Positions 5,108 through 32,325 of a stretch of DNA of 64,000 nt are shown here, piece after piece. The stretch lies in assembly GCF_057098645.1 (NCBI RefSeq), contig NZ_CM169472.1, one strand, 5' to 3'. Below the pieces are notes generated by a model that was not told where the DNA came from, made no database searches, and was given only the letters and a program-made list of their open reading frames with translations. Position numbers and translations under genes: made by a program. Positions within the stretch are counted from its first letter, which is position 1; each line of letters starts with the position of its first letter.

Positions 5108-5458
5108 ACTATGGGCGGCGTGTTGGCAAATGCTGCCTGTCTGCATTCAAAATTGCTACAAAATCCAACCATAAAAGTCGTTTACAACATATTTTTCTGA
5201 TTTACATACAGATAATGACCTGAGCTGTCTCACTGGGGGTCATCATCTATGCGTCCGGGGGATCTGTCACAAAAAGGAATAGAACAAAATCATCAGCGGT
5301 GAATAAAGCGATTCGTTTTAGATCACATTAATAAAATTTTTGTATCAAAAATTAGTTATCGCGCTCACAGTTCATAATGAAACAATTCTCTGCAAATAGA
5401 TAACCGAAGCTTCGTTGCTAGTATCAATTCGCTAATTATACACCTGCCAGAGGATACA

Positions 5459-13932: not shown

Positions 13933-14182
13933 ATCGACCTCTACAGTATTAATCGGAATACAATTGTTAATTTTGTGTGTTGTTTTTGTTATTCAATTAA
14001 AGCTTGCAGGGGCGATTACGGGAAGAGACTTTTGGGACAATGGCTGGTACTTTTCAGGTCGGGTACGGTTTTGTGATCGAGGTCGCTTTTAGCTATTTTT
14101 GACGTTACTAAATCCCCTTGCTCCAGGCGGAGAAAGAGGAATAGCAGGTGATGCCTGGTTTCCCGTTAAGGCTAAGGGATTT

Positions 14183-15073
14183 TCACGTCACAGGTACTTT
14201 TTTGGCACGGTAAGCACTGGGCGAGCAACCGACTAAACGATTAAAAAAGCGCGCAAAATAAGCCGGATCCTTAAAACCGAGTTGCCAGGCAATATTGTTC
14301 ACGGCGTTATCAGAAAACAGCAGCAGCCGCTTGGCTTCTCGCAGCTGCCTGTCGAAAATCAACCGTTTTGGCGGACGGTTGGCAAAGCGGCGGCAGATGT
14401 CCGTGAGGCGTGATTCGGTGATATGCAGTTCGTTAGCGTAATCCGGTACTGTCCAGTGCTGATGAAAATGGCTTTCAATCAGCATATGAAAACGCTGGAA
14501 CAGTTTTAATTCTCCGCGCATTCCGCTGGCGGCATGGTCGTCGAGTTTTGCGTTACGCAGCAGTAGGGTGAACACTGCCTGTGCCAGGAGCGTCAGGGTG
14601 TGTTCCCGTCCAGGCAGTTGTTCCACCGATTCCCGTTCTATCAGTTGCCAATAGTGTTCCAGCGCCGCCAGTTCGTCGGGTTTATCTGCCAGTGACAGGC
14701 AAATCCCCGGCAGGCCGAAGGTTTCCCGAGTGCCTGGATAAAGAACTTCCAGCAGGGGCCAGATCAGATCTTCCCGTACCGTCAACACATGACCGTCGGC
14801 GTCAGACTCCGTAATAAACGCATGAGGTACTGACGGCGGCGTCAGGACAAACAGGGGCGCTTCCACCGAGTAGCGATGATCGTCAAGCTGTAGCTCAATC
14901 TGTCCGCTATTGAGGAAATGCATCTGAAAGTACTGTTCGTGGCGATGTGGCAGCATATGGCGGCCAAAAAATGCCGCCATGCGGGCGAAGGACTGATAAT
15001 GCACATCGTCCGTGCCCAGGCTTTCATCGTACTCTTTGCTGATATCAATATTGGCAATCTGACGGTCACACAT
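14183..15073 (-). CDS. hpaA: AraC-family activator of hpaBC
   Basis: 296-aa ORF with C-terminal AraC-type HTH (…AWQLGFKDPAYFARFFNRLVGCSPSAYR…); position between hpaX and hpaB. Confidence 0.85.
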   Translation of the reverse strand: MCDRQIANIDISKEYDESLGTDDVHYQSFARMAAFFGRHMLPHRHEQYFQMHFLNSGQIELQLDDHRYSVEAPLFVLTPPSVPHAFITESDADGHVLTVREDLIWPLLEVLYPGTRETFGLPGICLSLADKPDELAALEHYWQLIERESVEQLPGREHTLTLLAQAVFTLLLRNAKLDDHAASGMRGELKLFQRFHMLIESHFHQHWTVPDYANELHITESRLTDICRRFANRPPKRLIFDRQLREAKRLLLFSDNAVNNIAWQLGFKDPAYFARFFNRLVGCSPSAYRAKKVPVT

Positions 15074-15082
15074 CGTCGTTCC

Positions 15083-16459
15083 TTACGGGGTCGCTCGCGG
15101 ACGGGAGGACTGCATTGGAATTGCCCAGATAATCCCTGCACCAATCACCAGCAGCGCGGCAACAAACCACAATCCACTGTTAAAGCTGCCGGTCAGATCT
15201 TTCAACCAGCCGATCATAAACGGACTTAATGCTGAACCAATGTTGCCAGTGGCGTTGATCACCGCAATACCGATCGCTCGTGCCCGCAGGCTGATGGACT
15301 GATCCGGTGTTGTCCAGAAAATCGCCATTGCGCTGAATGATCCGGTCGAAGCCATAATAATCCCCAGCATCTGGATCATGTTGTGATCAGTTGCCGAAGC
15401 CAGTAACCAACCAGCGGCAGCGAACAAATAAGGAAGGGCGGTGTGATGCCTTCGTTCCTGGCGGCGATCTGAGTGACGGCTCCAGTAGATCATCCCGAGA
15501 ATGGTACAAATCTGCGGTACGGCGGCCAGCAGGCCGATGGTGATATTACTGCTGCCCTGATTAAAGCTTTGCAGGATCTGCGGTGTCCAGATGCTGATCG
15601 CACTAAGTGTGTTGGTCAGGCAGAAATACGCCAGGGTATACATCATCACCACCGGAGTGAAGATCTCCCGCCACATGCTGCGTTGTTGCATGGCGTGGTG
15701 GCTGATGGCTCCCTCTGGCTGAACCAGCGTCAGACGATCGTTATCCATCATCTCTTGCAGGCATTTTTTGTCTTCTTTCGTCAGCCAGTTAGCTTTGTCC
15801 GGTGAGTCATCAAGCCAGAACCATACCATGACGCCGAGTAATACCGACGGGAAGCCTTCCAGCAAAAACAGCCACTGCCAGCCTTTTAATGCCATTACGC
15901 CATCCAGCGACAAAATGTAGCCGGAAACGATCGATCCCAACGCTGTCGTTACCGGCATTGCCACCATAAACAAGGCGTTGGCACGGGCGCGGAAATAGGC
16001 CGGAAACCAGAAGGTTAAATAGAGCAGAATGCCAGGCAGAAAGCCGGCTTCGGTAATGCCAACCAGTATACGCAGTACGTATAAGCTGGTGGGGCCAGTG
16101 GCAAACATGGTGGCAGTAGAGGCGATGCCCCAAAGCACCATGATGGTGGCGATCCAGCGTCGCGCACCGACAATACTCAGCATAATGTTGCTGGGAATGC
16201 CGAAGATGACATAAGCGGCATAGAACAGGGTGGTAGCGAGGCCAAACATGGTGGCGCTCAGACCGAGGTCGCGTCCCATAGTTAGTCCGGCAAAACCAAT
16301 GTTGATGCGATCAAGGAACGAGAAGATAAACAGCACGAACAGAAAGACGATCAGGCGGCGAAATAGCTTCTTAATAACCGCCTGTTGTCCGGCAGTCAGC
16401 GCTTTATGCTGATTCGCCGGATCGATACTCTCCGGTATGGCAGGTGAGGTGTCGCTCAT
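15083..16459 (-). CDS. hpaX: MFS 4-hydroxyphenylacetate transporter
   Basis: ORF 15083..16519; translation from MSDTSPAIPESIDPANQHKALTAGQQAVIKKLFRRL…; 458 aa, 12-TM MFS. Confidence 0.85.
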   Translation of the reverse strand: MSDTSPAIPESIDPANQHKALTAGQQAVIKKLFRRLIVFLFVLFIFSFLDRINIGFAGLTMGRDLGLSATMFGLATTLFYAAYVIFGIPSNIMLSIVGARRWIATIMVLWGIASTATMFATGPTSLYVLRILVGITEAGFLPGILLYLTFWFPAYFRARANALFMVAMPVTTALGSIVSGYILSLDGVMALKGWQWLFLLEGFPSVLLGVMVWFWLDDSPDKANWLTKEDKKCLQEMMDNDRLTLVQPEGAISHHAMQQRSMWREIFTPVVMMYTLAYFCLTNTLSAISIWTPQILQSFNQGSSNITIGLLAAVPQICTILGMIYWSRHSDRRQERRHHTALPYLFAAAGWLLASATDHNMIQMLGIIMASTGSFSAMAIFWTTPDQSISLRARAIGIAVINATGNIGSALSPFMIGWLKDLTGSFNSGLWFVAALLVIGAGIIWAIPMQSSRPRATP

Positions 16460-16504
16460 TTTTCTTCCTCTAATGGGATTTTTGTAGGGTACGACAAGGT
16501 TTAT

Positions 16505-16632
<128 letters not shown>

Positions 16633-16633
16633 A

Positions 16634-17422
16634 TTAATACACGCCGGGCTTAATCGCTGTAGCCTGCGCGCCAAACCGTGCTGCCAGCGCTTCGGCGGCG
16701 CGGGCGAGCAGGGTGGTGTCAACGCCGACGGCGACAAACAGCGCGCCCAGTTCCAGATAGCGTTTTGCCAGTTGCTCATTGGCGATCAGGATCCCCGGCG
16801 CCTTACCCGCTTCGCGGATCTGCACGATCGCCTGCTCAATCGCGGCCTGCACTTCCGGGTGTTGCGGATTACCGGCGTAACCCATATCGGCGCTCAGATC
16901 CGCTGGGCCGATAAACACGCCGTCGACTCCTTCCACGTCCAGAATCTGCGGTAAGTTCTTCATTGCCTCACGGGTTTCGATCTGCACCAGCACGCACATT
17001 TGATCGTTGGCTTTTTGCAGGTAATCAGGAATGCGATTCCAGCGCGAGGCGCGAGCCAGCGCACTGCCCACACCGCGAATACCGGCGGGGGGATAACGGG
17101 TGGCGCGTACCGCTTCACGGGCTTCGTCGGCGTTTTGTACCATCGGCACCAGTAAGGTTTGTGTGCCGACATCCAGCAGTTGTTTGATTTGCACCGGATC
17201 GTTCCACGACGGACGTACTACCGGCTGGCTGGGGTAGGGCGCAATCGCCTGTAGTTGGGTGAGCACGGTTTGCACGTTATTCGGCGCGTGCTCACCGTCG
17301 ATCAATAACCAGTCGAATCCTGCTCCGGCCAGTAACTCTGCGCTGTAGCTGCTACTCAGCCCCAGCCATAATCCGATCTGCGGGCGGCCTGCTTTCAGCG
17401 CCGCTTTAAAACTGTTTTCCAT
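16634..17422 (-). CDS. hpaI: 2,4-dihydroxyhept-2-ene-1,7-dioate (HpaI) aldolase
   Basis: Translation from [48 protein letters not shown]…; 262 aa. Confidence 0.85.
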
Positions 17423-17432
17423 CGTTCTCTCC

Positions 17433-18236
17433 TTAAACAAAGCGGCAGCTAATGGAGCCCATGTTGCCGTAATCGACGTGGAAGGTGTCGCCCTTACGCG
17501 CCGGAACCGGGCGGGTAAACGAACCGCCGAGAATGATTTGCCCGGCTTCCAGTTGTACGTCATACGGTGCGAGTTTGTTCGCCAGCCAGGCCACGCCGTT
17601 TGCCGGATGATTCAGCACACCAGCGGCGACGCCGGTTTCTTCAATCACGCCATTGCGATACATCAGGGCGGAGATCCAACGCAGATCCAGCTCGTCAGGT
17701 TTGATCGGACGACCACCGAGGATCACCCCGGCATTGGCGGCGTTATCAGAAATGGTGTCGAACACTTTGCGCGGGCGCTGGGTTTCCGGATCGATGTTGT
17801 GGCAGCGGGCGTCGATCAGCTCCAGCGCCGGGATCACATAGTCCGTGGCGTTGTAAACGTCGAACAGCGTGCAGTTTGGTCCACGCAGCGGTTTTGCCAG
17901 CACGAAAGCCAGCTCCACTTCAATGCGCGGCACGATAAAGCGATCGGTCGGGATATCGCTGCCATCGTGGAAGAACATGTCATCCAGCAGGGCACCGTAA
18001 TCCGGCTCGCTGATTTGTGAGCTGGCCTGCATAGCTTTCGAGGTCAGGCCGATTTTGTGGCCTTTCAGCGTACGGCCTTCGGCGATTTTCAGGCGAACCC
18101 ATTCGCGCTGCACGGCGTAGGCGTCTTCGATGGTGATCTCGGGGTAATCCAGGGAGATCGCGCGGATCTGTTCGCGCTGTTTTTCTGCCTGATCCAGACG
18201 CTGGGCGATCAGGGTGTGGGTGTGTTTATCGAACAT
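17433..18236 (-). CDS. hpaH: 2-oxo-hept-3-ene-1,7-dioate hydratase
   Basis: Translation from [46 protein letters not shown]…; 267 aa. Confidence 0.85.
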
Positions 18237-18303
18237 AGCGATATCCTGTGGCATTGCCGGATGCGGCAGCGCCTTATCATCCGGCCTGGAAGCTGGTGCA
18301 AAT

Positions 18304-18684
18304 TTATTTAAACAACGCGTGTACGTTGTTCTGTTTGAAATTCAACGTCGGGTGCAGCTCTGCAATCTCAAATGAAAGCGCCAGGTAACGGCTCTCCATC
18401 AGTGAGGCGAAGTGCGTTTTAATCAGATCAAACAGCATTTCGCCCACTTCCTGACGGCTTTCCAGACTGCGTCCGCTGCCGATTTTTAGCGTCATATGCA
18501 CAAAGGCGTAATCGTGCTTGCCATCAGCCATTTGCCAGGTATCGATCCAGTGCGCCCGGCTACGTATTCCCCCAAGCGGAAAAATCCCCGTTGCCGCCAG
18601 TGCAGTGTTAACACTGGCAAACAGCTCAGGTAAGCGGGCTTCTTCACGAATATTTTCAGTACATTCCACGATAAAGTGCGGCAT
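18304..18684 (-). CDS. hpaF: 5-carboxymethyl-2-hydroxymuconate isomerase
   Basis: 126-aa [49 protein letters not shown]…. Confidence 0.85.
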
Positions 18685-18693
18685 AAAACGTCC

Positions 18694-19545
18694 TTACGCG
18701 GGCAGCGGGAAAACAGCGTTAACCTGACCGGTGCCAGAGCTTGGGAACAGCTCGGTAATAAACTCCACCTTGCCGTCGTATTTATCCCAGCCGAGCATCC
18801 CCAGCAGCATCACCGTGTCGTGCATATTGCCTTCGCCGTAGCAGTAGTCGGCGTACTCCGGCAGCATATTGCAAAACTCTTTGAACTGGCCTTCGCGCCA
18901 CAGCTTCACCACACGCTCGTCCATCTGGCGGTCGAACTCGCGGGTGTAGCTGTTCATCCCTTCTTCCGCACGCTGATCGTCAATAAAGCGGTGCGATAAC
19001 GAACCGCTGGCAAGGACCGCCACGGTGCCGTCGTACTGTTCGATCGCTTTCAGAATCGCTTCGCCCAGCTTGCGGCTGTCGGCAAAATCGTGAACCGTGC
19101 AGAAAGCCGAAATGGAGACCACTTTGAAGTGCTTGTCTTCATTCATGTAGCGCATCGGTACCAGCGTGCCGTACTCCAGTTTCAGGCTGGGAATGTTGTG
19201 CGCTTTCGCCCGCACGCCGAGTTTTATTGCTTCATCGGCAATTAGCTGCCCCAACTCCGGGTTGCCTTCGTAGTTGTAGGTCATGTCGCGAATAAAGTGC
19301 GGCAGCTCGTTGCTGGTGTAGACGCCTTCAAAATGGTCTGCACAGTTGATGTGATAAGCACTGTTGACCAGCCAGTGGGTATCGAAAACGATAATGGTAT
19401 CGACGCCCATTTCCCGGCAACGCTTGCTGATCTCTTTATGTCCGTCGATCGCACCCTGGCGACAACCGTGGTTTTTTCCTGGTAGTTCAGAGAGATACAT
19501 CGACGGTACGTGCGTGATCTTGGCGGCTAACGCTAACTTACCCAT
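18694..19545 (-). CDS. hpaD: 3,4-dihydroxyphenylacetate 2,3-dioxygenase
   Basis: 283-aa ORF MGKLALAAKITHVPSMYLSELPGKNHGCRQGAIDGHKEISKRCREMGVDTIIVFDTHW…. Confidence 0.9.
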   Translation of the reverse strand: MGKLALAAKITHVPSMYLSELPGKNHGCRQGAIDGHKEISKRCREMGVDTIIVFDTHWLVNSAYHINCADHFEGVYTSNELPHFIRDMTYNYEGNPELGQLIADEAIKLGVRAKAHNIPSLKLEYGTLVPMRYMNEDKHFKVVSISAFCTVHDFADSRKLGEAILKAIEQYDGTVAVLASGSLSHRFIDDQRAEEGMNSYTREFDRQMDERVVKLWREGQFKEFCNMLPEYADYCYGEGNMHDTVMLLGMLGWDKYDGKVEFITELFPSSGTGQVNAVFPLPA

Positions 19546-19546
19546 A

Positions 19547-21013
19547 TCAGACTCCCCATTTCGGAATTGGATGGTCGCCCATGGAAATGCAGACGTTCTT
19601 CATTTCCGCGAACACTTCGAAGCTGTACTCACCGCCTTCACGCCCGGTGCCGGAGGCTTTTACGCCGCCAAACGGCTGGCGCAGGTCGCGCACGTTCTGG
19701 GTGTTGACGAACACCATGCCTGCTTCAATGCCACGCGCCAGGCGTAACACTTTGCTGACATCCTGTGTCCAGATGTACGACGCGAGGCCGTACTCCACGT
19801 CGTTTGCCAGGCGTAAGCCTTCGGCTTCATCTTTAAACGGCAGCAGGCAGGCGACCGGCCCGAAAATCTCTTCCTGGGCAACGCGCATACGGTTATCTAC
19901 GTCCGCCAGCACCGTTGGGCGCAGGAAGTTGCCGCCTTTCAGGTGCGCAGGCAGGTCGGACGGTTTATCCGGACCGCCCGCCAGCAGGGTTGCGCCTTCT
20001 TCAATGCCTAGACGGATATAGCCGGAGACTTTTTCCCAGTGCTGCTGGCTGATAAGAGCCCCAACCTGGGTGTTCGGATCGTTCGGATCGCCCACGCGCA
20101 GACGGTTGGCGCGTTCGGCAAAGCGTTTAACGAATTCTGGATAGATGCTCTGTTGAATAAAAATGCGCGAACCGGCGGTGCAGCGTTCGCCGTTGATTGA
20201 GAAGATGGTGAACAGGGCAGCGTCCAGCGCACGTTCAATATCGGCATCTTCAAAAATCAGCACCGGCGATTTACCGCCCAGTTCCATGGAGTATTTTTTC
20301 AGCCCGGCGTTTTTCATGATGTTGCGCCCGGTGGCCGTACCGCCGGTGAACGACACGGCACGTACGTCATGATGACGAACCAGCGCATCCCCTGCGGTTG
20401 CGCCGTAGCCCTGTACCACGTTCAGCACGCCCGCCGGAATACCGGCTTCCAGCGCCAGCTCACCCAGGCGGTCAGCGGTCAGCGGGGAGAGTTCCGACAT
20501 CTTCAGCACCGCGGTATTGCCCAGAGCCAGACACGGCGCGACCTTCCATGTGGCGGTCATAAACGGCACGTTCCACGGCGATACCAGCGCACAAACGCCT
20601 ACCGGTTGCACCAGCGTGTAGTTGAGCATCTTGTCGTCAACCGGATAGGTCTTGCCGTTCATCTGCTGGCAGACTTCCGCGAAAAATTCAAAGTTGTGAG
20701 AAGCGCGTGGGATCAACACATTTTTGGTCTGATGGATCGGCAGGCCCGTGTCCGCGGTTTCCATCGCGGCGATCTCAGGCACGTTCTGGTCGATCAGATC
20801 GCCCAGACGGCGCATCAGGCGCGCACGCTCTTTCATCGGCAGATTGGCCCATTTCGGGAACGCCTCTTTCGCTGCCGCTACCGCCTGATTGATCTCCGCT
20901 TCACCGCCAGAGGCCACATCCGCCAGCACTTCACCCGTTGCCGGATTGGTGGTCTGGAAGTAGTCGTTACCTGCGACATTTTTGCCGTTGATCCAATGAT
21001 TTACTTTTTTCAT
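19547..21013 (-). CDS. hpaE: 5-carboxymethyl-2-hydroxymuconate semialdehyde dehydrogenase
   Basis: 488-aa aldehyde dehydrogenase family ORF (…ELGGKSP…, catalytic Cys context GERCTAG). Confidence 0.9.
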   Translation of the reverse strand: MKKVNHWINGKNVAGNDYFQTTNPATGEVLADVASGGEAEINQAVAAAKEAFPKWANLPMKERARLMRRLGDLIDQNVPEIAAMETADTGLPIHQTKNVLIPRASHNFEFFAEVCQQMNGKTYPVDDKMLNYTLVQPVGVCALVSPWNVPFMTATWKVAPCLALGNTAVLKMSELSPLTADRLGELALEAGIPAGVLNVVQGYGATAGDALVRHHDVRAVSFTGGTATGRNIMKNAGLKKYSMELGGKSPVLIFEDADIERALDAALFTIFSINGERCTAGSRIFIQQSIYPEFVKRFAERANRLRVGDPNDPNTQVGALISQQHWEKVSGYIRLGIEEGATLLAGGPDKPSDLPAHLKGGNFLRPTVLADVDNRMRVAQEEIFGPVACLLPFKDEAEGLRLANDVEYGLASYIWTQDVSKVLRLARGIEAGMVFVNTQNVRDLRQPFGGVKASGTGREGGEYSFEVFAEMKNVCISMGDHPIPKWGV

Positions 21014-22299
21014 TTCGCTGTATCCTCACTCACAATTCGGTTCACCAGGCGGCCCACGCCTTCTACTTCCACCACTACTTCATCGCCAGGCACCACGTCA
21101 GATAAGCCTTTTGGTGTGCCGGTGGCGATCATGTCGCCCGGATTCAGGGTCATAAATTCGCTTAAGTAGGCGATCAGGAAGGGCACGCTGAAGATCAGAT
21201 CGGCGGTGGTGCCTTGCTGGCGTAACTCGCCGTTGACGAAGGTGCGAAGGGTCAGATTATGCGGGTCCGGGATCGCCTCTTTCGGCACGATGGTTGAAAG
21301 CATCGGCGTCAGTCCGTCGCGGCTTTTTACCCGCAGGTTAGGGCGGTAGTAGTTTTCCAGATAGTCGCGAATGGCGTAGTCGTTACACACGGTGTAGCCC
21401 GCGACATAATCCATGGCATCGGCTTCGCTGACGTTACGCGCCTGTTTGCCAATAACTACCACCAGCTCCGCTTCATAGTGCATGTATTCAATATTGTTTG
21501 GACGCACGGAGGTCTGGTTATCGCCAGTGAGGGTATTTGGCGCTTTCAGGAACACCAGCGGTTCTTCCGGTGGCTTAAATTCCAGTTCGCTGGCGTGGTC
21601 GGCGTAGTTCAGGCCGAGGGCAAACAGCGTACCGTGCGGGTGTGGCAGCGTTGGGAAGCTCTTGCGCGTGGTCACTTCACGTTCGTCCACTACCGGATTT
21701 TCCAGCGGCAGGAAACCTTCTGCGAGAACACGCACGCGATCGCCTGGCTGTATTTCCACGCGCGCCTGTGGCGTGCCGAGCAGAATGGCATCGCCTGGGT
21801 TCAGCGTGGCAAATTCGCTCAGGGCGCTCAGCAGCTGTGCGGCGTTACGTTGTAAATCGGCGGTGTTCCAGTGATCGGCAGGACGCCCGTTGATCTCGGT
21901 ATAGATAGTCAGATTATCGACATTGCTGAGAGCCACGGTTTCGCCAATGGGGCAGAATCCATCACGACATTTTGCTTTGATTGCCGGACGGTAAAAGCTC
22001 TCTTCCGGCAGGCTGACGTCGTTAGCCAGCGCATATCCGGCGATGTACTCTGCCGCATCTTCTTCACGTACTTTCGTCGCCGTTTTTCCCACAATCAGCG
22101 CAACTGTCGCACCGCTCAGTACCTTTTCACCCTGTGGAAAGGGAATCGGTTCACCGCAACCAATCACCGTATTGCGCGGTTTAATAAACCAGACCGCAGT
22201 TTTAGGCGGGGCTTTGTAGGGGGATTGCTGGAACGCTTCCTGCCAGGCATAAAGTTGGCTGCGATGGTTCAATGCTACGGCGAAGATAGTGCCTTTCAT
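21010..22299 (-). CDS. hpaG: Bifunctional 5-oxopent-3-ene-1,2,5-tricarboxylate decarboxylase / 2-hydroxyhepta-2,4-diene-1,7-dioate isomerase
   Basis: Translation from MKGTIFAVALNHRSQLYAWQEAFQQSPYKAPPKTAVWFIKPRNTV…; duplicated FAH-fold; 429 aa. Confidence 0.85.
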   Translation of the reverse strand: MKGTIFAVALNHRSQLYAWQEAFQQSPYKAPPKTAVWFIKPRNTVIGCGEPIPFPQGEKVLSGATVALIVGKTATKVREEDAAEYIAGYALANDVSLPEESFYRPAIKAKCRDGFCPIGETVALSNVDNLTIYTEINGRPADHWNTADLQRNAAQLLSALSEFATLNPGDAILLGTPQARVEIQPGDRVRVLAEGFLPLENPVVDEREVTTRKSFPTLPHPHGTLFALGLNYADHASELEFKPPEEPLVFLKAPNTLTGDNQTSVRPNNIEYMHYEAELVVVIGKQARNVSEADAMDYVAGYTVCNDYAIRDYLENYYRPNLRVKSRDGLTPMLSTIVPKEAIPDPHNLTLRTFVNGELRQQGTTADLIFSVPFLIAYLSEFMTLNPGDMIATGTPKGLSDVVPGDEVVVEVEGVGRLVNRIVSEDTAK

Positions 22300-22570
22300 T
22301 ACCACTCCTCGGATTCGATCATCTTGATCATTAATATGTTAATGATTGCTTTTATTCCCGATTGCGTAGTTTGGCAAAAGTAAGTGATATAAATGTGATC
22401 TAATTAACAAACTATTTACATTTAAAGATAATAAAATATTAAATATCAGTAAGTTAATAAAATATCATCAATTTTGATAAAATCAGGAATTGCGAGGACA
22501 GCTCAGTCCCGGTAACGTGACGATTAACTGTTTCTATATTAATGATTTTGAATTTTTCAGGGGAAAGATA

Positions 22571-23017
22571 ATGCACGACTCACTAACTATTGCGTTGCTC
22601 CAGGCGCGAGAAGCGGCGATGAGTTATTTTCGCCCAATCGTTAAACGGCATAATTTGACTGAGCAACAGTGGCGCATCGTGCGTATTCTGGCGGAAAGCC
22701 CATCAATGGATTTTCACGATCTGGCGTATCGCGCCTGCATTTTGCGCCCAAGCCTGACCGGGATCCTCACGCGGATGGAACGCGACGGTTTAGTGTTGCG
22801 ATTAAAGCCGATCAATGATCAGCGGAAGCTCTATATCTCGCTAACCAAAGAGGGGCAGGCGCTGTATAACCGCGCCCAGACACAGATTGAAGAAGCCTAT
22901 CGGCAGATTGAAGCTCAGTTTACTGCCGAGAAAATGCAACAGTTAACCCATCTGTTAGAGGAATTTATTGCTCTGGGCAATTCCCGACAAGAAGACATCC
23001 CGGGCGATAATGAATAA
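22571..23017 (+). CDS. hpaR: MarR-family repressor of the hpa meta-cleavage operon
   Basis: Translation from MHDSLTIALLQAREAAMSYFRPIVKRHNLTEQQWRIVRILAESPSMDFHDLA…; divergent from hpaG. Confidence 0.85.
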   Translation: MHDSLTIALLQAREAAMSYFRPIVKRHNLTEQQWRIVRILAESPSMDFHDLAYRACILRPSLTGILTRMERDGLVLRLKPINDQRKLYISLTKEGQALYNRAQTQIEEAYRQIEAQFTAEKMQQLTHLLEEFIALGNSRQEDIPGDNE

Positions 23018-23135
23018 CTTTTTAGTATCTGATAACCAGCGCCTGGTTTTTCCATGGATGGCGGGTTACACCTTTTCATAAAGTTTTTGCTTTCCAGGCC
23101 GAAAATCTTGCATCGGTCCACAGGAAAGAGAAACC

Positions 23136-24800
23136 ATGTTAAAACGTATCAAGATCGTGACCAGCTTACTGCTGGTTTTGGCCGTTTTTGGCCTTTTACA
23201 ACTGACATCAGGCGGTCTGTTCTTTAATGCCTTAAAGAATGACAAAGAAAATTTCACTGTTTTACAAACCATTCGCCAGCAGCAATCCACGCTGAATGGC
23301 AGCTGGGTCGCGTTGTTGCAGACGCGTAACACCCTCAACCGCGCGGGTATCCGCTACATGATGGATCAGAATAATATTGGTAGCGGTTCAACCGTTGCTG
23401 AGCTGATGCAGAGTGCCAGTATTTCGCTGAAACAGGCGGAAAAAAACTGGGCGGATTACGAAGCGTTGCCGCGTGACCCGCGTCAGAGCACCGCCGCAGC
23501 GGCAGAGATCAAACGTAATTACGATATTTATCACAATGCGCTGGCGGAGCTGATCCAACTGTTAGGTGCAGGCAAAATCAACGAGTTCTTTGATCAGCCA
23601 ACCCAGGGATATCAGGACGGTTTCGAGAAGCAGTATGTGGCTTACATGGAGCAAAACGATCGGCTCTATGATATCGCCGTCAGCGATAACAATGCCTCCT
23701 ACAGCCAGGCGATGTGGATTCTGGTGGGCGTGATGATCGTCGTACTGGCGGTCATCTTCGCCGTCTGGTTCGGTATTAAAGCCTCGCTGGTAGCGCCAAT
23801 GAATCGTCTGATTGACAGCATTCGTCATATTGCAGGCGGCGATCTGGTGAAACCAATTGAGGTGGATGGCTCTAATGAGATGGGGCAACTGGCAGAGAGT
23901 TTGCGCCATATGCAGGGAGAGCTGATGCGTACCGTCGGTGATGTGCGCAACGGGGCCAATGCCATTTATAGCGGTGCCAGCGAAATCGCCACCGGCAATA
24001 ACGATCTCTCTTCGCGCACCGAGCAACAGGCCGCTTCGCTGGAAGAGACGGCAGCCAGCATGGAGCAACTGACCGCAACGGTGAAACAGAACGCCGAGAA
24101 TGCGCGCCAGGCCAGCCACCTGGCGTTAAGTGCTTCTGAAACGGCGCAACGCGGCGGCAAAGTGGTAGATAACGTGGTGCAGACTATGCGTGATATCTCC
24201 ACCAGTTCGCAGAAAATCGCCGATATTATCAGCGTAATTGACGGCATTGCCTTCCAGACCAATATTCTGGCTTTGAACGCGGCGGTTGAAGCAGCGCGTG
24301 CGGGTGAGCAAGGACGTGGTTTTGCGGTGGTTGCGGGAGAAGTGCGTAATCTGGCCCAGCGTAGCGCTCAGGCGGCTCGTGAAATTAAAAGCCTGATTGA
24401 AGACTCGGTGGGGAAAGTGGATGTTGGCTCTACGCTGGTCGAAAGCGCCGGGGAAACAATGGCGGAGATTGTCAGTGCCGTGACCCGCGTGACGGACATT
24501 ATGGGCGAAATAGCTTCTGCTTCTGATGAGCAGAGCCGTGGTATCGATCAGGTTGGCTTAGCGGTTGCTGAGATGGACCGGGTAACTCAACAGAACGCCG
24601 CGCTGGTGGAAGAATCTGCCGCCGCCGCCGCCGCGCTGGAAGAGCAGGCCAGTCGCCTGACCGAAGCTGTGGCAGTGTTCCGGATTCAGCAACAGCAGCA
24701 ACAGCAGCGTGAAACATCGGCTGTGGTAAAAACCGTGACGCCAGCTGCGCTGCGTAAAATGGCCGTGGCAGATAGCGGGGAGAACTGGGAAACGTTTTAA
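23136..24800 (+). CDS. tsr: Methyl-accepting chemotaxis protein I (serine chemoreceptor), C-terminal NWETF
   Basis: 554-aa [83 protein letters not shown]…ENWETF. Confidence 0.9.
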
Positions 24801-24808
24801 CGCAATGA

Positions 24809-24838
24809 CGCCGGATGAGTATTTCATCCGGCGTTTTT
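24809..24838 (+). terminator. Rho-independent terminator after tsr (bidirectional with the convergent TRAP operon)
   Basis: cgccggatgagtatttcatccggcg hairpin followed by TTTTTATTATT. Confidence 0.6.
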
Positions 24839-24842
24839 ATTA

Positions 24843-26114
24843 TTAAACCAGGAACAGTGAAATCGCCGGGATATATGTCACCAGCATTAGCATTAATAGT
24901 AGAGCCGCCAGTAGAGGCAGGGATTGTTTAAAGAAATTTCCCACCGAAACTTGCGTGATGTTACATACCAGCAGCATCACGGTACCTACCGGTGGCGTGA
25001 ATGCGCCAATCGACAGGTTGAAGATCATGATGATGCCAAAATGCACCGGATCGATGCCAAAGTGTTCGACCACCGGTTTTAATAGTGGTACCAGGATCAG
25101 CAAAATGGCGTTTCCTTCCAGAAACATCCCCAGCGTCAGCAGCAATATGTTGATAATTAACAGGAACATATATTTATTTTCGGTCAGCGAAGTCACAAAA
25201 TTCGCCACTGCGACACCAGCATGTTCCATTGAGAAAATCCATCCCAACGCGGCGCTGGCCATGATTACCAGCATCACCGATGCGGTTGCGCGTGCCGTTT
25301 CGCCCAATGCTTTGACGACATGAGAAATCCGCATTTCACGATAGATAAAAAAGCCAATCGCCAGCACGATTAGCACCGCTGCTGCACCTGCTTCTGTTGG
25401 GGTGAAAATGTTAGCGCGAATACCACCCACCACAGCAAAAATGAGGAACAGCGCAGGCCAGGCCTGCCCCAGCGAGAACACCACCTCTTTGCCCGTAGGC
25501 CAGCTTTCACGCGAGGGTTTAGCGTTAGTTTTGCGGGCGACCAGGTAGACGGTAAACATCAGGACGACTGCGCATAGCAAACCAGGTACCAGACCGGCGA
25601 TAAACATTTTTCCGATAGAGACGTCGGCAACCAGACCGTAAATAATCAGGGCTATTCCCGGCGGTATGATCGGGGTGACTAACGAGCCACCAGCGGTAAT
25701 GGCGGCGGCAAATGCGCGATTGTAGCCTTTACGCTCCATCTCCGGCACCATCATGCGCGACAGCATCGCCGCGTCAGCAAGGTTAGAGGCGCTGACGCCG
25801 CCCATCATGGTGCTGACGAGAATGTTTGCCACGCCAAGTCCGCCGCGCATTTTCCCCACCAGAACGTTGGCAATGTGCAGGATGCGTTCGGCAATGCCGG
25901 TGTAGCTCATTAGTGTGCCGAGCAAGATAAAAAACGGAATTGCCAGCAATGATGGGCTTTGCGTTGGCGCGATCAGTCTTTGCACGGCAATTTCAATCGG
26001 TACGCTGGAGAAGAATAAAAAGTAAGCGATGATGCCAATAAACATCGCCAGATAGACCCGAATGTTGAGAAACAAACAGACGATCATTAGCGGAATAATC
26101 AATAACCAACTCAT
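24843..26114 (-). CDS. TRAP transporter large permease (DctM family)
   Basis: 423-aa polytopic ORF with DctM-family signature segments (…LLAIPFFILLGTLMSYTGIAERI…, …PIIPPGIALIIYG…). Confidence 0.8.
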   Translation of the reverse strand: MSWLLIIPLMIVCLFLNIRVYLAMFIGIIAYFLFFSSVPIEIAVQRLIAPTQSPSLLAIPFFILLGTLMSYTGIAERILHIANVLVGKMRGGLGVANILVSTMMGGVSASNLADAAMLSRMMVPEMERKGYNRAFAAAITAGGSLVTPIIPPGIALIIYGLVADVSIGKMFIAGLVPGLLCAVVLMFTVYLVARKTNAKPSRESWPTGKEVVFSLGQAWPALFLIFAVVGGIRANIFTPTEAGAAAVLIVLAIGFFIYREMRISHVVKALGETARATASVMLVIMASAALGWIFSMEHAGVAVANFVTSLTENKYMFLLIINILLLTLGMFLEGNAILLILVPLLKPVVEHFGIDPVHFGIIMIFNLSIGAFTPPVGTVMLLVCNITQVSVGNFFKQSLPLLAALLLMLMLVTYIPAISLFLV

Positions 26115-26584
26115 TGCATTTTTTCTCCGCTATCGGATTGTTTTATATCGTGTATTAACCAGTAGAGGGTATAAATAGCCGTTGCCAGTGCGCCGACAGG
26201 GACCGCCAGATCGATCCAGAACCAGGAAACCTTCAGAATTTGTGTCACTTTAAACTGCGCCATTTCGGCTAGTCGGTAGCCCAGCCAGGCCATATACAGC
26301 AGCAGTGTGATGGAGAGAACGGCGACCAGTACTGCAATAACACGCCTGTGTTTGCCTGGAAGCATCTCCATCAGGAAGGGAATGGTCAGGTGCGCCCTGT
26401 CACGTTCCGCCACCACTCCACCTAACATCACCACCCAAATCATCAGCATTCCCGACATTTCTTCTGTCCATTGAAGCGGTTGGCCGATGAAATAACGCAT
26501 AAATACCGCTCCAATTGTCATCACAACCAGAACGAATAGCGCAAAGGCAGCACTAAATTCTGCCACTTTGCCAAAAAGACGCAT
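26111..26584 (-). CDS. TRAP transporter small permease (DctQ family)
   Basis: 157-aa 4-TM ORF overlapping the DctM start by 4 nt (translational coupling). Confidence 0.7.
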   Translation of the reverse strand: MRLFGKVAEFSAAFALFVLVVMTIGAVFMRYFIGQPLQWTEEMSGMLMIWVVMLGGVVAERDRAHLTIPFLMEMLPGKHRRVIAVLVAVLSITLLLYMAWLGYRLAEMAQFKVTQILKVSWFWIDLAVPVGALATAIYTLYWLIHDIKQSDSGEKMQ

Positions 26585-26647
26585 GAAACCTCCTGTTAGT
26601 GCGTGTCCTGCCTAAGAGAGATGAGGCAGGACGCTGAGCATTAATGC

Positions 26648-27619
26648 TTATTGCAGTTGCTGTTGAATGGTTTCGTACAGACCTGGTGTCCATTCCGGGA
26701 ATTGAGAGTAAACTTCGCGTGCTTTCTTCTGGAATGGTCCAGTATCGGGATAGATCACTTCGACGCCCGCTGCCTGCATGGTTTTCAACATTTCGGCATC
26801 ACGCTCAAGAGTGAGTTTCTGGCTATAGACACCCGCTTCATAGCCGGTCTGGTGGATCATCTCCAGTTGTTCTGGTGAAAGGGTGCTAAAGAAGGCTTCA
26901 CTACCTATCCATACTGAGGTATTTGTCAGGTAGTTAACCATTGTCAGATATCTTGCCTGCTCATACAGTTTTTGCCCTTGCAGCACTGAAATTGGGTTTT
27001 CTACGCCGTCAATGACGCCCTGGGTTAATGCGGGATAAACTTCGCCTAATGGCATGGGAGTTGGTGTTGCCCCCATCGCCTGAATGGCTTTTATTTGCAT
27101 GACGTTATTAGGAACGCGAATTTTTAAGCCTGCGAGATCGTCAACGGTGCGAATGGGTTTTTTCGAAATAATCTGTCGAGTGCCATAGAGATAATTATTC
27201 ATTACCACATGAATTCCCTTTTTCTTCAGACTTTCATTTTTTTGTTTAAACCAGTCGCTTTCATATATTTTGAACAGTTTTTGTGGATCGTCAGTCAGAT
27301 ACGGTCCAAACAAAATACCCAAATCGGGTTCATAATCGGCAAGAAAGGCCACATCACTCAAGGTTATGACATTCATGCCCATCATGGCTTGCTCGGTGAC
27401 ATCCTGTTTTGAGCCCAATTGGGAACTTGGATAGAGCGCAAGTGTTATTTCGCCATTACTTTTTTTATTTAATAGGTCTGCCCAGTAACGCATGACCACA
27501 TCCAGGGGTTCTCCAGGGTTATTTTCATAGGCAACTTTTATCGAAATAGGTTTTGCCTGGATTATTGACGGTAAAAAAAGGGTACTGACAGTAATTAGCA
27601 TCGCTATTATTTTGCTCAT
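26648..27619 (-). CDS. TRAP transporter periplasmic substrate-binding protein (DctP family)
   Basis: 323-aa ORF with N-terminal signal peptide MSKIIAMLITVSTLFLPSIIQA; AT-rich relative to flanks. Confidence 0.8.
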   Translation of the reverse strand: MSKIIAMLITVSTLFLPSIIQAKPISIKVAYENNPGEPLDVVMRYWADLLNKKSNGEITLALYPSSQLGSKQDVTEQAMMGMNVITLSDVAFLADYEPDLGILFGPYLTDDPQKLFKIYESDWFKQKNESLKKKGIHVVMNNYLYGTRQIISKKPIRTVDDLAGLKIRVPNNVMQIKAIQAMGATPTPMPLGEVYPALTQGVIDGVENPISVLQGQKLYEQARYLTMVNYLTNTSVWIGSEAFFSTLSPEQLEMIHQTGYEAGVYSQKLTLERDAEMLKTMQAAGVEVIYPDTGPFQKKAREVYSQFPEWTPGLYETIQQQLQ

Positions 27620-28298
27620 CTTTACTTACTCCATGCTAAGGAAATAAAACTCCAACATTGTTGTCGGGAGTGAAACCTTATGAAAAAGCAGTCATTACTG
27701 AAAAGTAGTCAGCGAATAGCGGAATGGCTGCAGATGTGTCATAAATTCGTGCACCGGGTAATACTTTGCTGCTTTTAATCGGTTTTTAATGCATTTTTTG
27801 ATTGTATATCTTAAAGTTATGTAATGCATGACGTTACAAGGAACACCCTCTGATGAGTTTAGTTACCGCTGATAAGATCTCTTATTCGGTTGATGATTTA
27901 TTAAAAATAAAATCATTAATTTGGCTGTGGCTATTTTTACAGATAAAAACTAAGTGTTGACGCAGAATGGTGGTATCCATTAAATTTATTTAGTGCTGAT
28001 TTAATACATTTGCTGAACGTATAATTCATGCTGACGTTAAAAGAAAGCCGTCATTCACTAAATAACTTGTTCGGCAAGGAGATCAAAGAGTAACGGATGA
28101 TTCGTTACAACGGTTAAAGGTAGTAAATATTCACGTGATGAATTTGTTATCAACTGGAAAACTCATCTCACTGGTTTCCTCCTGAGCATGTGAGTGAACG
28201 TTGTGATTAATGATTAACGTTAAGTGCTAACCAGGGCGCTTTTATGAAGTTAAATTAATAATATCCATTATTTATGAATGAGGAAGCCTGTTTATTAT

Positions 28299-29951
28299 AT
28301 GGAAATATTTTTAACAATTTTAATTCTTACGTTGGTAGTATCATTAACCAGCGTGCTTACGCGTCTGTCTCCTGTTCAGATACCACTTCCTTTAATCCAG
28401 ATTGCCGCTGGCGCTTTACTGGCCCAACCCATATTTGGTCTGCATGTGGAATTCAATCCTGAACTTTTTCTCTTATTGTTTATACCCCCCTTGTTGTTTG
28501 CTGAAAGCTCAAAAATACAACCTAAAGAATTGATCAAGCACAGTCGGGAAATTGTCAGCCTGGCGCTTGTGTTGGTGCTAATCACTATTTTTGGTGTCGG
28601 CTATGTGATTCATTTACTCTTACCGAATGTGCCGCTCATCGCTGCTTTCGCATTAGCCGCCGTGTTGTCGCCTACCGATGCCGTGGCGTTGCTGGGGATT
28701 GTCGGGAAAGGGCGTATCAGCAAAAACATCCAGGAAGTGCTCGAAGGCGAAGCGTTGATGAATGATGCTTCCGGCCTGGTGGCGTTGAAATTTGCTGTTG
28801 CAGTGACGATGGGAACGATGGAATTCAGCGTTCATGGCGCAACCATTGCGTTTTTTGTCGTTGCGTTGGGTGGTATTGCCGTGGGGATCGCTGTTACCTG
28901 GTTATATGGCAAAGGGCTGCTGTTGATCAGTCGATATGCTCACGATGAACCTTCCATTCAGATTGTATTGATGCTTCTGTTGCCGTTTATTGTTTATCTG
29001 GTTGCGGAACATTTTGGCTTATCTGGCATTCTTGCCGCTGTCGCCGCGGGGTTAACAACCAGTCGCATTGGCGTAGTCCACCACGCGCCTATCCGCCTGA
29101 GAATTAAAGCTAAAAGTAGCTGGTCGATGCTTGAATATGTCTTTAACGGCATGGTGTTTCTGATTTTAGGCTTACAACTGCCGGGCATTATTTCGGAATC
29201 ACTGATCCGTGCAGAAAACGATCCACTGGTAGACACCGGATCGCTGCTCCTTGATGTCATTTGGATCTACCTGGCGTTAATGGTTGTGCGCCTGGGCTGG
29301 CTTTGGCTGATGCGTCTGTATAGCCGTAAACGACCCGGCAAACATCCGATGCTGTTTGCTGGATATAAAACGCGTCATATGCTGCTGGCGACCTTTGCGG
29401 GGGGGCGCGGAGCCATCACGCTTGCGGGGGTGCTTTCTATCCCGTTATTGCTGCCGGATGGCACACCTTTTCCCGGGCGTTACTTACTGGTATTTCTCGC
29501 CACAGGTGTGATCCTCTTTTCGCTGGTTTGCGGCATTATTATTCTGCCGTTACTACTGGGGAAAAATGTGGGCATTTTCAGCGATAACCGGCAAAAAGAA
29601 GAGGAAGCTGCCGATCTGTTTATGGCCAAAATGGCCATACTCAGTGTGCAAAAGACTGAGCAACGTTTGCTACGCACCAGTACAGAAAACCTCGACAACG
29701 AGTTGATTATGGAAACAGGGGCCAGAGTTATCGGTTATATGCGGCGTAGCGAAGATGATATGTCGGAAAATGATAATTCTTTACATATGCAGCGCGCGAA
29801 GTTGGAAAGAACATTTAATCTGGCAGCGTTAAATGCCAGGCGTGCGGCTATTTACCAGATGCGTGCACGGCAAGAAGTCAGTGATGAAACACTGGCAAAA
29901 ATAGTCAGTGAATTAGATGTGCTGGAAACGTTAATCATGGATAGCCGATAA
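28299..29951 (+). CDS. CPA1-family Na+/H+ exchanger, YjcE-like
   Basis: ORF 28278..29951; translation from MEIFLTILILTLVVSLTSVLTRLSPVQIPLPLIQIAAGALLAQPIFGLHVEFNPELF… resembles YjcE; C-terminal cytoplasmic tail. Confidence 0.75.
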   Translation: MEIFLTILILTLVVSLTSVLTRLSPVQIPLPLIQIAAGALLAQPIFGLHVEFNPELFLLLFIPPLLFAESSKIQPKELIKHSREIVSLALVLVLITIFGVGYVIHLLLPNVPLIAAFALAAVLSPTDAVALLGIVGKGRISKNIQEVLEGEALMNDASGLVALKFAVAVTMGTMEFSVHGATIAFFVVALGGIAVGIAVTWLYGKGLLLISRYAHDEPSIQIVLMLLLPFIVYLVAEHFGLSGILAAVAAGLTTSRIGVVHHAPIRLRIKAKSSWSMLEYVFNGMVFLILGLQLPGIISESLIRAENDPLVDTGSLLLDVIWIYLALMVVRLGWLWLMRLYSRKRPGKHPMLFAGYKTRHMLLATFAGGRGAITLAGVLSIPLLLPDGTPFPGRYLLVFLATGVILFSLVCGIIILPLLLGKNVGIFSDNRQKEEEAADLFMAKMAILSVQKTEQRLLRTSTENLDNELIMETGARVIGYMRRSEDDMSENDNSLHMQRAKLERTFNLAALNARRAAIYQMRARQEVSDETLAKIVSELDVLETLIMDSR

Positions 29952-30121
29952 TTTTATCGCTGCCAGTAATAGGGAGTTAAATGATGGCTGAGAGTAATAC
30001 TTCCAGCATCGTTTATTCCCTATGTATTTCCTTATGGGCAGAACAATCGCCTGAATTAATACTGCATTAATACAACATAGTGATATAAACCAAGAATCAA
30101 TGTTTTTAATCTGTACTTAAT

Positions 30122-31027
30122 TTATCGGTGATGTTGCCTGATGGAACGAATCATTGATTGTTTGGCGGTATCCAGATGGTTTCGCAACGCCGTTATTGCA
30201 TCTAAATCGCTACGGCAAATCAGGGCGCTGAGAATGGTCATATGCTCATCAACAGCAATGATATTGCGCTGCTTGAGATCGCTTTCATCCCATTGATAGT
30301 GAAAATGAAAGATCACCGAGATAATTTCAAGTGATTGATTAAAAAAGATGTTGTCAGCAGCGGATAACAGCATGGCATGAAAATCACGGTCTAATTGAGA
30401 AAACATCCGAAAGTTGCTGCCAATGCTGTCGCGCAATGTCCTGTGACGTTCGAGCATGGTTTTCGCCTGCAACCAGCGGGGATCGTCATCGGGAAGGTTG
30501 AGAAAGTGTTGCAGGGAATGTGTTTCGAGCATTTCGCGTAGCTCAAACAGCTGCTCGGCGTAGGATTGATCGAACTGCTTCATGCTCCACTGGCCGCGCT
30601 TTTCGCTTTGAATAAGATTATAACGACCGAATTTCAAAAGATATTCTCGCACCACTACCGGACTGACGCCTGCCGCTCGCGCCAGCTGAAGTTCGGAAAA
30701 GCTTTCTCCGGCGCGTAACTGACGCAGGTTAATCATGGTGAAAAATGCCTGCTCGAAAAGACGGTTTTGCTCTTTCAGCGAGGCCGTGATGCAATCAAAT
30801 CCATCGTTCTGTTCGGGTTTGCGGGCGATAACATAATTTTTCCCCACCAGGGTGAGCACGCCACATGCGCTTAAATGCTGGAGTATGTGGCGTACCGTAG
30901 TGCGACTGATGTTATACATTTCTGCCAGCCCGCTTTGTGAAGGCAGCGGAGAAGGAATATTGCCCCTCGCCATATCTTCAATTACCTGATTTATGACGTT
31001 ATGACGTAAATTCTGCGAACGACTCAT
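30122..31027 (-). CDS. lgoR: GntR-family regulator of L-galactonate catabolism LgoR (YjjM)
   Basis: 301-aa ORF MSRSQNLRHNVINQVIEDMARGNIPSPLPSQSGLAEMYNISRTTVRHILQHLSACGVL…. Confidence 0.8.
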   Translation of the reverse strand: MSRSQNLRHNVINQVIEDMARGNIPSPLPSQSGLAEMYNISRTTVRHILQHLSACGVLTLVGKNYVIARKPEQNDGFDCITASLKEQNRLFEQAFFTMINLRQLRAGESFSELQLARAAGVSPVVVREYLLKFGRYNLIQSEKRGQWSMKQFDQSYAEQLFELREMLETHSLQHFLNLPDDDPRWLQAKTMLERHRTLRDSIGSNFRMFSQLDRDFHAMLLSAADNIFFNQSLEIISVIFHFHYQWDESDLKQRNIIAVDEHMTILSALICRSDLDAITALRNHLDTAKQSMIRSIRQHHR

Positions 31028-31165
31028 TCTTCCCTCCAGTTCGGCATTAAAAACCGATTTAAAACATTTTTATGCGTGATCATCCGCATATTTTATGGGT
31101 AAATTCAGGCGCTCTTATAAATTCGACGATATCTGAAAGTCATAAAATAAAAGGAGCGGTGAATC

Positions 31166-32188
31166 ATGTCCACAATGAAAGTATTAATTTGTCAGGAAAT
31201 AAAGAATTTAGTATGGGAAGTCCGGGAAAGACCGGTGCCAGGCGATAATGAAGCATTAATAAAAATTAAAACTGTCGGGATTTGCGGTACAGATATTCAT
31301 GCCTGGGCGGGCAATCAACCATTTTTTAGTTATCCACGCGTTTTAGGCCATGAAATATGTGGGGAGATTATTGAATCAGGAAAAAACATTCACAATTTTA
31401 ATATCGGACAGCAAGTTGCGGTAATTCCGTATATTTCTTGTCAGCAATGCCCGGCGTGTAAAAGCGGGCGTACAAATTGCTGTGAAAAAATTTCAGTCAT
31501 TGGCGTGCATCAGGATGGCGGTTTTAGTGAGTATTTGAACGTGCCGGTGGCGAACATTTTGCCCGCAGACGGTATTGACCCGCAGGCGGCCGCATTGATT
31601 GAACCTTTCGCTATTAGCGCTCATGCGGTGCGTCGCGCAGCCATTGCTCCCGGCGAGCAGGTGCTGGTGGTCGGGGCGGGGCCAATCGGTCTGGGCGCGG
31701 CGGCAATCGCTAAAGCCGATGGCGCACAGGTGGTGGTGGCGGATACCAGTCCGGCGCGCCGTGAACATGTGGCAACGCGTCTGGAGTTGCCCGTGCTGGA
31801 CCCGTCAGCCGAAGATTTTGACGCGCAGCTGCGGGCGCAGTTTGGTGGTTCGCTGGCGCAGAAAGTGATCGACGCGACAGGTAATCAACATGCGATGAAT
31901 AACACCGTGAATCTGATTCGTCACGGCGGCACGGTGGTATTTGTCGGCCTGTTTAAAGGTGAGTTGCAGTTCTCCGATCCGGAATTCCATAAAAAAGAAA
32001 CGACGATGATGGGCAGCCGCAACGCCACGCCGGAAGATTTTGCTAAAGTCGGTCGACTGATGGCGGAAGGAAAAATCACTGCTGACATGATGTTAACCCA
32101 TCGCTATCCGTTCGCCACGCTGGCAGAAACCTACGAGCGCGATGTGATTAACAATCGTGAGTTAATTAAAGGCGTAATTACTTTCTGA
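31166..32188 (+). CDS. lgoD: L-galactonate 5-dehydrogenase (Zn-dependent MDR family) LgoD (YjjN)
   Basis: 340-aa ORF with GHEICGEI zinc motif and GAGPIGLGAAAIAKADGA Rossmann motif. Confidence 0.85.
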   Translation: MSTMKVLICQEIKNLVWEVRERPVPGDNEALIKIKTVGICGTDIHAWAGNQPFFSYPRVLGHEICGEIIESGKNIHNFNIGQQVAVIPYISCQQCPACKSGRTNCCEKISVIGVHQDGGFSEYLNVPVANILPADGIDPQAAALIEPFAISAHAVRRAAIAPGEQVLVVGAGPIGLGAAAIAKADGAQVVVADTSPARREHVATRLELPVLDPSAEDFDAQLRAQFGGSLAQKVIDATGNQHAMNNTVNLIRHGGTVVFVGLFKGELQFSDPEFHKKETTMMGSRNATPEDFAKVGRLMAEGKITADMMLTHRYPFATLAETYERDVINNRELIKGVITF

Positions 32189-32325
32189 TAAGGCGAGATT
32201 ATTAAAGTTGCCATGCAGCGTCCGGGGAAGTGTTGGGCGCTGTTTTTTTTGTTTCTTAATAATGTGTTGTAAGCCGGAGAAGGTGTGTAGGTCGCACCCT
32301 ATGCGACCTACATATCAGTCAGGAA

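Follow-up and report, generated by a model that had tools for sequence, protein, structure and literature searches.

Chemoreceptors of the pentapeptide-tethered Tar/Tsr type were reportedly treated by Bartelli and Hazelbauer in 2011. Such receptors carry an xWxxF pentapeptide at the end of a linker that has about 30-35 residues and is described as unstructured (PMC7390727). The pentapeptide binds CheR and CheB (PMC7390727, PMC4692393), the linker sequence is poorly conserved (PMC7390727), and direct evidence of its disorder comes from EPR on Tar, cited in PMC7390727. Linkers differ greatly in length between receptors (bioRxiv 10.1101/2024.03.07.583918). In Tar linker mutants the most probable position of tethered CheR shifts by 0.128 +/- 0.048 nm per aa (PMC10561060); the same study gives linker lengths of 30 aa for Tsr and 34 aa for Tar, and argues that the Tsr linker is matched to the geometry of the methylation sites.

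The Escherichia coli tsr gene described here resembles the engineered Tar mutants (PMC10561060) in that the stretch from the helix end to the NWETF pentapeptide is changed in length; those mutants, however, are laboratory deletions and insertions of 5-12 residues, whereas the Tsr alleles are natural and come in three-residue steps. The Tsr orthologue group also differs from receptors in general in that its tether length is tight (33 +/- 1 aa), and within E. coli a single repeat accounts for the variation. MLVA typing uses loci such as in-frame coding VNTRs of bacterial genes; the tsr repeat shares with them perfect short tandem units, whole-unit alleles and repeated change among close relatives, but its copies are very few (1.33-4.33) and its allele distribution is strongly skewed. 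No description of a tsr repeat polymorphism or of a tsr MLVA locus was found in the literature searched; the alleles themselves can be seen in public genomes and in a PDB construct. Our analysis of a window of 64,000 nucleotides (contig NZ_CM169472.1, assembly GCF_057098645.1) leads us to regard the seven Gln codons in its tsr gene as, very probably, the commonest allele of an in-frame 9-bp repeat in the Tsr tether and an ordinary polymorphism.

The tsr gene and the Tsr tether

The following features of the window are relevant to this analysis.

23136-24800, plus strand: tsr, encoding the serine chemoreceptor (methyl-accepting chemotaxis protein I); intact open reading frame of 554 aa
24684-24782, plus strand: C-terminal tether I517-E549, 33 aa, leading from the signalling-domain helix to the pentapeptide; boundaries as in PMC10561060 and PMC4692393
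24687-24707, plus strand: Gln run Q518-Q524, a polymorphic 9-bp tandem repeat of CAGCAACAG in 2.33 copies; from the sequence, Tandem Repeats Finder and allele comparison
24783-24797, plus strand: NWETF pentapeptide, read from the sequence

The window Tsr contains the three expected Pfam domains, PF02203 TarH (185.7 bits), PF00672 HAMP (47.6 bits) and PF00015 MCPsignal (210.1 bits), all far over their curated cut-offs, and its last five residues are NWETF, a pentapeptide of the xWxxF type whose docking function is taken from PMC7390727 and PMC4692393. The tether is counted from I517 as in PMC10561060, residue 517 being the last conserved residue of Tsr (PMC4692393). The DNA of the gene matches the tsr annotated in E. 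coli O145 RM9872 with 100% identity.

In K-12 MG1655, tsr (NC_000913 4591657-4593312; NP_418775, b4355, presumably also P02942) encodes 551 aa. The two proteins are products of the same gene, with the same domain architecture, NWETF and flanking linker sequence, and 547 of the 554 residues are identical (99% over the full length). They differ in the tether, which has 30 aa in K-12 and 33 aa in the window Tsr with its three additional Gln, and in four substitutions, the window having Q92 for E, Y178 for H, L539 for P536 and G548 for E545. The position of L539 (24750-24752) is variable among orthologues. Beside the pentapeptide it is K-12 that is atypical again, with E545 in place of G548 (24777-24779) of the window, the orthologue consensus being G[D/E]NWETF.

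The gene itself is conserved amid variable flanks (window about 14100-32200). In the window and in RM9872 an hpa (4-hydroxyphenylacetate) operon with hpaR lies upstream and a TRAP transporter with a Na+/H+ antiporter downstream, in contrast to K-12, where btsT precedes tsr and lgoT follows it. SCU-171 has RidA, a symporter and a MurR regulator upstream and lgoT downstream, and SC434 combines btsT upstream with a TRAP transporter downstream. On the 3' side of the window tsr, a terminator-like hairpin with a 13-bp stem, followed by a T-run, is found on the plus strand at 24807-24835, between tsr and a convergent TRAP permease gene (24843-26114, minus strand), for both of which it probably serves as a shared bidirectional terminator; the sequence at this site is different in K-12.

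A 9-bp repeat at the start of the tether

Positions 24687-24707 read cag caa cag cag caa cag cag, seven Gln codons in frame in tsr, bounded by TTCCGGATT on the 5' side and CGTGAA on the 3' side, and the run ends 25 residues ahead of NWETF. Tandem Repeats Finder reports a perfect 9-bp repeat of CAGCAACAG in 2.4 copies at 24687-24708 (period 9, 100% matches). There is a single copy of the 21-mer in the window and none in 100 shuffles, even with two mismatches allowed, and about 3e-6 runs of at least seven Gln would be expected by chance, given that Gln makes up 6.6% of the remaining Tsr residues. CAA interrupts the run at every third codon, so that the longest unbroken CAG stretch is two codons. 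Relative to the window, the K-12 repeat has exactly one 9-bp unit fewer.

The repeat is a 9-bp minisatellite and not a pure triplet repeat, because the alleles always differ by a whole CAGCAACAG unit. An earlier note on this DNA had described a triplet-repeat length polymorphism, expanded from the four Gln that it gave for K-12, in the tether carrying NWETF. Direct reading confirms the seven consecutive codons within the 554-aa frame, alignment with MG1655 bears out the four Gln of K-12 (cag caa cag cag), the site does vary in length (4, 7, 10 and 13 codons), and the run starts right after residue 517 (PMC4692393, PMC10561060) and is thus located in the tether as claimed. The unit that slips, however, is 9 bp, with CAA at every third codon and no single-codon length variants of the run among about 280 survey matches listed.

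A second triplet run in tsr, GCC x 5.7 at 24618-24634, codes for A495-A500, which lie between E493 and E502, both of them methylation-site residues. In contrast to the Gln run, its length was constant across the 15 E. coli genes and 80 orthologues compared.

Allele series and frequencies in E. coli

Direct reading of the run in 15 E. coli tsr genes gave lengths of 12, 21, 30 and 39 bp, that is, 4, 7, 10 and 13 codons. Ten Gln codons are present in SC434, LF82, HS and S51, and thirteen in Z1323HEC0355, whose Tsr has 560 aa; every 10- and 13-codon allele is an exact addition of whole CAGCAACAG units. Two alleles are interrupted by CAT (His), as the sixth of seven codons in SMS-3-5 (QQQQQHQ) and as the ninth of ten in SCU-171 (QQQQQQQQHQ). 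In both, the CAG-to-CAT (Gln-to-His) change occupies the last full unit, and the two strains have mutually the closest tsr backbones (19 nt apart), which suggests that an extra unit was added upstream of the His-marked one. All 15 alleles keep the frame and encode a full-length Tsr with an intact NWETF. A phase-variable contingency locus of the on/off kind was also considered and rejected, since the 9-bp unit always keeps the frame and 15 of 15 alleles give full-length Tsr.

For a wider survey, allele queries with 60-bp flanks were compared by BLAST with 5,426 complete RefSeq E. coli genomes, 5382 of which could be scored. An identity of at least 95% was taken as the same length and 90-95% as a one-unit difference, so that the frequencies given below count length classes deduced from bands of BLAST identity, beside the 15 alleles read directly, and they come from a clonally biased collection in which K-12 derivatives, O157:H7 and clinical lineages are over-represented.

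7-codon class, His-interrupted variants included: 4056 genomes, 75.4% of 5382
4-codon class: 1214 genomes, 22.6% of 5382
10-codon class: 72 genomes, 1.3% of 5382
13 codons: 3 genomes, 0.06% of 5382, counted from full-length, 100%, single-piece matches only
In no length class: about 37-40 records, about 0.7% of 5382, found with the window-derived query and missed by both the K-12-derived and the 10-codon query

The strict count for 13 codons was adopted because this query reports 7-codon genomes as two joined pieces of about 97% identity, which contaminate the bands at or above 95%. Record totals were 5382 for the window-derived query and 5340-5342 for the others. Identity bands do not separate single-codon variants (5, 6 or 8 Gln) from SNPs, and the lengths of the listed matches were used instead; these were 132, 141, 150 and 159 bp, whole units in every match listed. 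An even-step sample of full-length tsr matches gave a similar distribution, with 1665 bp in 29 genes, 1656 bp in 8 and 1674 bp in 2. In about 41-44 of the 5,426 genomes a full-length tsr or a match to its 3' end is missing, which suggests that the gene is lost or disrupted in about 0.8% of complete E. coli genomes.

The 7-codon class occurs in CFT073, SMS-3-5, O157:H7, O111:H8 and O145, which are phylogenetically distant strains; those 7-codon alleles placed on the tsr tree are CFT073, SMS-3-5, O111:H8 and the window allele. The 4-codon isolates come from humans, dog, cattle, chicken, plant and wastewater, and no link of copy number with habitat or pathotype was apparent in the small sample read.

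Recurrence of copy-number change was examined in the 15 tsr genes with the repeat removed (1644 nt). Outside the repeat, O18 (4 codons) and CFT073 (7 codons) differ by 6 nt, HS and S51 (10 codons) differ from O111:H8 (7 codons) by 2 nt, and L1PEag1 (4), SC434 (10) and Z1323HEC0355 (13) are separated by 5-8 nt. Conversely, four-codon alleles occupy at least four distinct backbones, those of K-12, E89, PK8277, O18 and L1PEag1 being clearly different (18-39 nt apart). Copy number has thus changed repeatedly or been moved by short-tract recombination: the presence of different copy numbers on near-identical backbones indicates recurrent gain and loss of units, for which short-tract recombination could partly account.

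Tether length in orthologues and polarity of the change

As outgroups we used 80 Tsr orthologues of other Enterobacteriaceae, obtained from a scan of GTDB species representatives. The xVF[RH] helix-end motif stops at residue 516 in all 80, and NWETF is found in 78. Between residue 517 and the pentapeptide there are 33 aa in 47 of the 80 and 32-34 aa in 72; a 30-aa tether occurs in two, both Trabulsiella. The 47 orthologues that are 554 aa long share on average 41% of the tether residues with the window Tsr, compared with 88% over residues 1-516. The length of the tether is therefore conserved while its sequence is not, and this suggests that length, held at 33 +/- 1 aa across genera, is under selection.

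No stretch of more than three consecutive Gln was present in the 80 orthologues. At the site of the run, two sister Escherichia lineages with a Tsr of 554 aa have QQ(T/A)QQRQHE, and Citrobacter and Salmonella have QQEQQR(A/S)R(E/D), sequences that align gap-free to the Q7-R-E of E. coli. Because 33 aa is the modal length in orthologues and the outgroup alignment is gap-free, the 33-aa tether of the window would represent the ancestral length and the 30 aa of K-12 an outlier; the E. coli root state is inferred here from the nearest outgroups, two Escherichia lineages whose tsr diverges by about 11-12%. The contig scan returned no tsr locus from E. albertii, E. fergusonii or the E. coli type strain. 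Relative to both the species and the family, K-12 has a contracted allele and an atypically short tether.

The perfect two-unit repeat probably arose by duplication somewhere in the E. coli stem lineage, to judge from the outgroup codons, from which about five events are counted via a 4-Gln-like intermediate against about seven by substitutions alone. Since duplication is easier than about seven substitutions, an ancient passage through a shorter intermediate in that stem lineage is possible. Any such ancient expansion is older than the diversification of E. coli and does not mark out the window strain.

The same scan returned contig CACSKA010000015.1 (70 kb), labelled Chryseobacterium sp. 18061, with an enterobacterial-type Tsr that ends in NWETF and is 80% identical over the periplasmic domain; this assembly is probably contaminated or mislabelled.

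Proposed mechanism and effect on CheR reach

On the explanation that we favour, a (CAGCAACAG)n-CAG minisatellite, present in the window in two-and-a-third copies, occupies the first non-conserved residues after the signalling-domain helix. The perfect 9-bp units would allow slipped-strand mispairing or unequal exchange, each event adding or removing three Gln and giving tethers of 30, 33, 36 or 39 residues. The four-Gln version of K-12 is a minority allele one unit shorter.

The effect per unit is predicted to be small. Applying the Tar relation, which derives from constructs differing by 5-12 residues, to tethers of 30, 33, 36 and 39 aa gives extrapolated CheR positions of 9.8, 10.2, 10.6 and 11.0 nm, so that a single unit would alter CheR reach by about 0.4 nm (about 0.38 nm, or some 4%). 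Gln is uncharged, and the charge pattern of the linker (bioRxiv 10.1101/2024.03.07.583918) is therefore unaltered. The polymorphism is most likely nearly neutral, under weak stabilising selection on tether length; if tether length is selected, changes of three residues may not be fully neutral.

Alternative explanations

The earlier note had taken the seven codons for a strain-level expansion derived from an ancestral run of four. K-12 does have four Gln, two identical 9-bp units are what a duplication leaves, and the event count favours a 4-Gln-like intermediate. The 7-codon class, however, is the majority (4056 genomes against 1214 of K-12 length), it spans the distant strains named above, 554 aa is the length both of the sister Escherichia lineages and of the modal orthologue, in which the tether has 33 aa, and 4-codon alleles nest beside 7- and 10-codon ones on near-identical backbones. 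This reading is largely refuted and we consider it highly improbable; the contrary state of affairs that the note had envisaged, seven Gln in K-12 and in most strains alike, turned out to hold for most strains but not for K-12. Its interpretation is thus partly supported, the polymorphism and its location being right and the direction and the repeat unit wrong. A sequencing or assembly artefact in a low-complexity stretch, for which only the general error-proneness of repeats speaks, has practically no probability: the 141-bp context with the same 21-mer recurs at 99% identity or more in 655 independent complete genomes, the 141-bp length is common to 4056 genomes, the reading frame is intact, and the same allele is present in the construct of PDB 3ZX6.

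Two further readings concern what the polymorphism would do. The extra Gln might lengthen the signalling-domain helix and so alter the stability or bias of the methylation-helix bundle near E493 and E502, and not the tether reach. An AlphaFold2 monomer model does run the helix through the Gln run to residue 527, and the 1QU7 crystal construct reaches residue 520, but confidence in the model is low (mean pLDDT 62, pTM 0.33), with pLDDT about 44 for 521-530 and below 50 from 524 on, the model of 8C5V ends at 516, and 517 is the last conserved or structured residue (PMC4692393, PMC10561060). The helix predicted for 518-527 is of low confidence and is followed by coil (pLDDT about 32) at 528-554; the low conservation of the tether, 41% against 88% elsewhere, would fit disorder. 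We judge a helix extension very unlikely. Somewhat less remote, yet still unlikely, is an adaptive role, in which the 9-bp repeat would be a mutable quantitative adjuster of the CheR/CheB tether, its three-residue steps shifting where the tethered enzymes act on the Tsr methylation sites, with copy numbers selected by lineage via the kinetics and precision of serine adaptation. The linear shift of the CheR concentration profile with Tar linker length (PMC10561060), a tether of 32-34 aa in 72 of 80 orthologues despite 41% identity, by which length seems to matter, and the repeated changes in copy number are all consistent with such a role. Against it, the ancestral length is kept in 75% of genomes, longer alleles are rare (1.3% and 0.06%), the predicted change is only about 4% per step, and the small sample read gives no apparent connection to habitat or pathotype. 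Were the adjuster real, there would be heritable differences between lineages in how fast and how precisely they adapt to serine, and the model strain K-12 would stand at a non-representative setting.

Significance

Taken as an ordinary polymorphism, the seven-Gln run carries little biological weight: it is an in-frame variant in a low-conservation linker of a very well-studied receptor, and the window has the common allele. It does call for caution, in that studies of quantitative chemotaxis rely on the Tsr of K-12: some three quarters of the complete E. coli genomes encode a longer tether, and the 30 aa of K-12 also fall below the 33 aa conserved in enterobacterial orthologues. The Af1503 HAMP-Tsr chimera of PDB 3ZX6 carries seven Gln, and at least one structural study has therefore used a non-K-12 Tsr sequence. 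Because the K-12 tether is atypically short, arguments built on linkers of 30 aa in Tsr and 34 aa in Tar hold for the strain and not for the species, which weakens the geometry-matching argument of PMC10561060. The natural series of 4, 7, 10 and 13 Gln codons offers a ready-made test of tether-length models.
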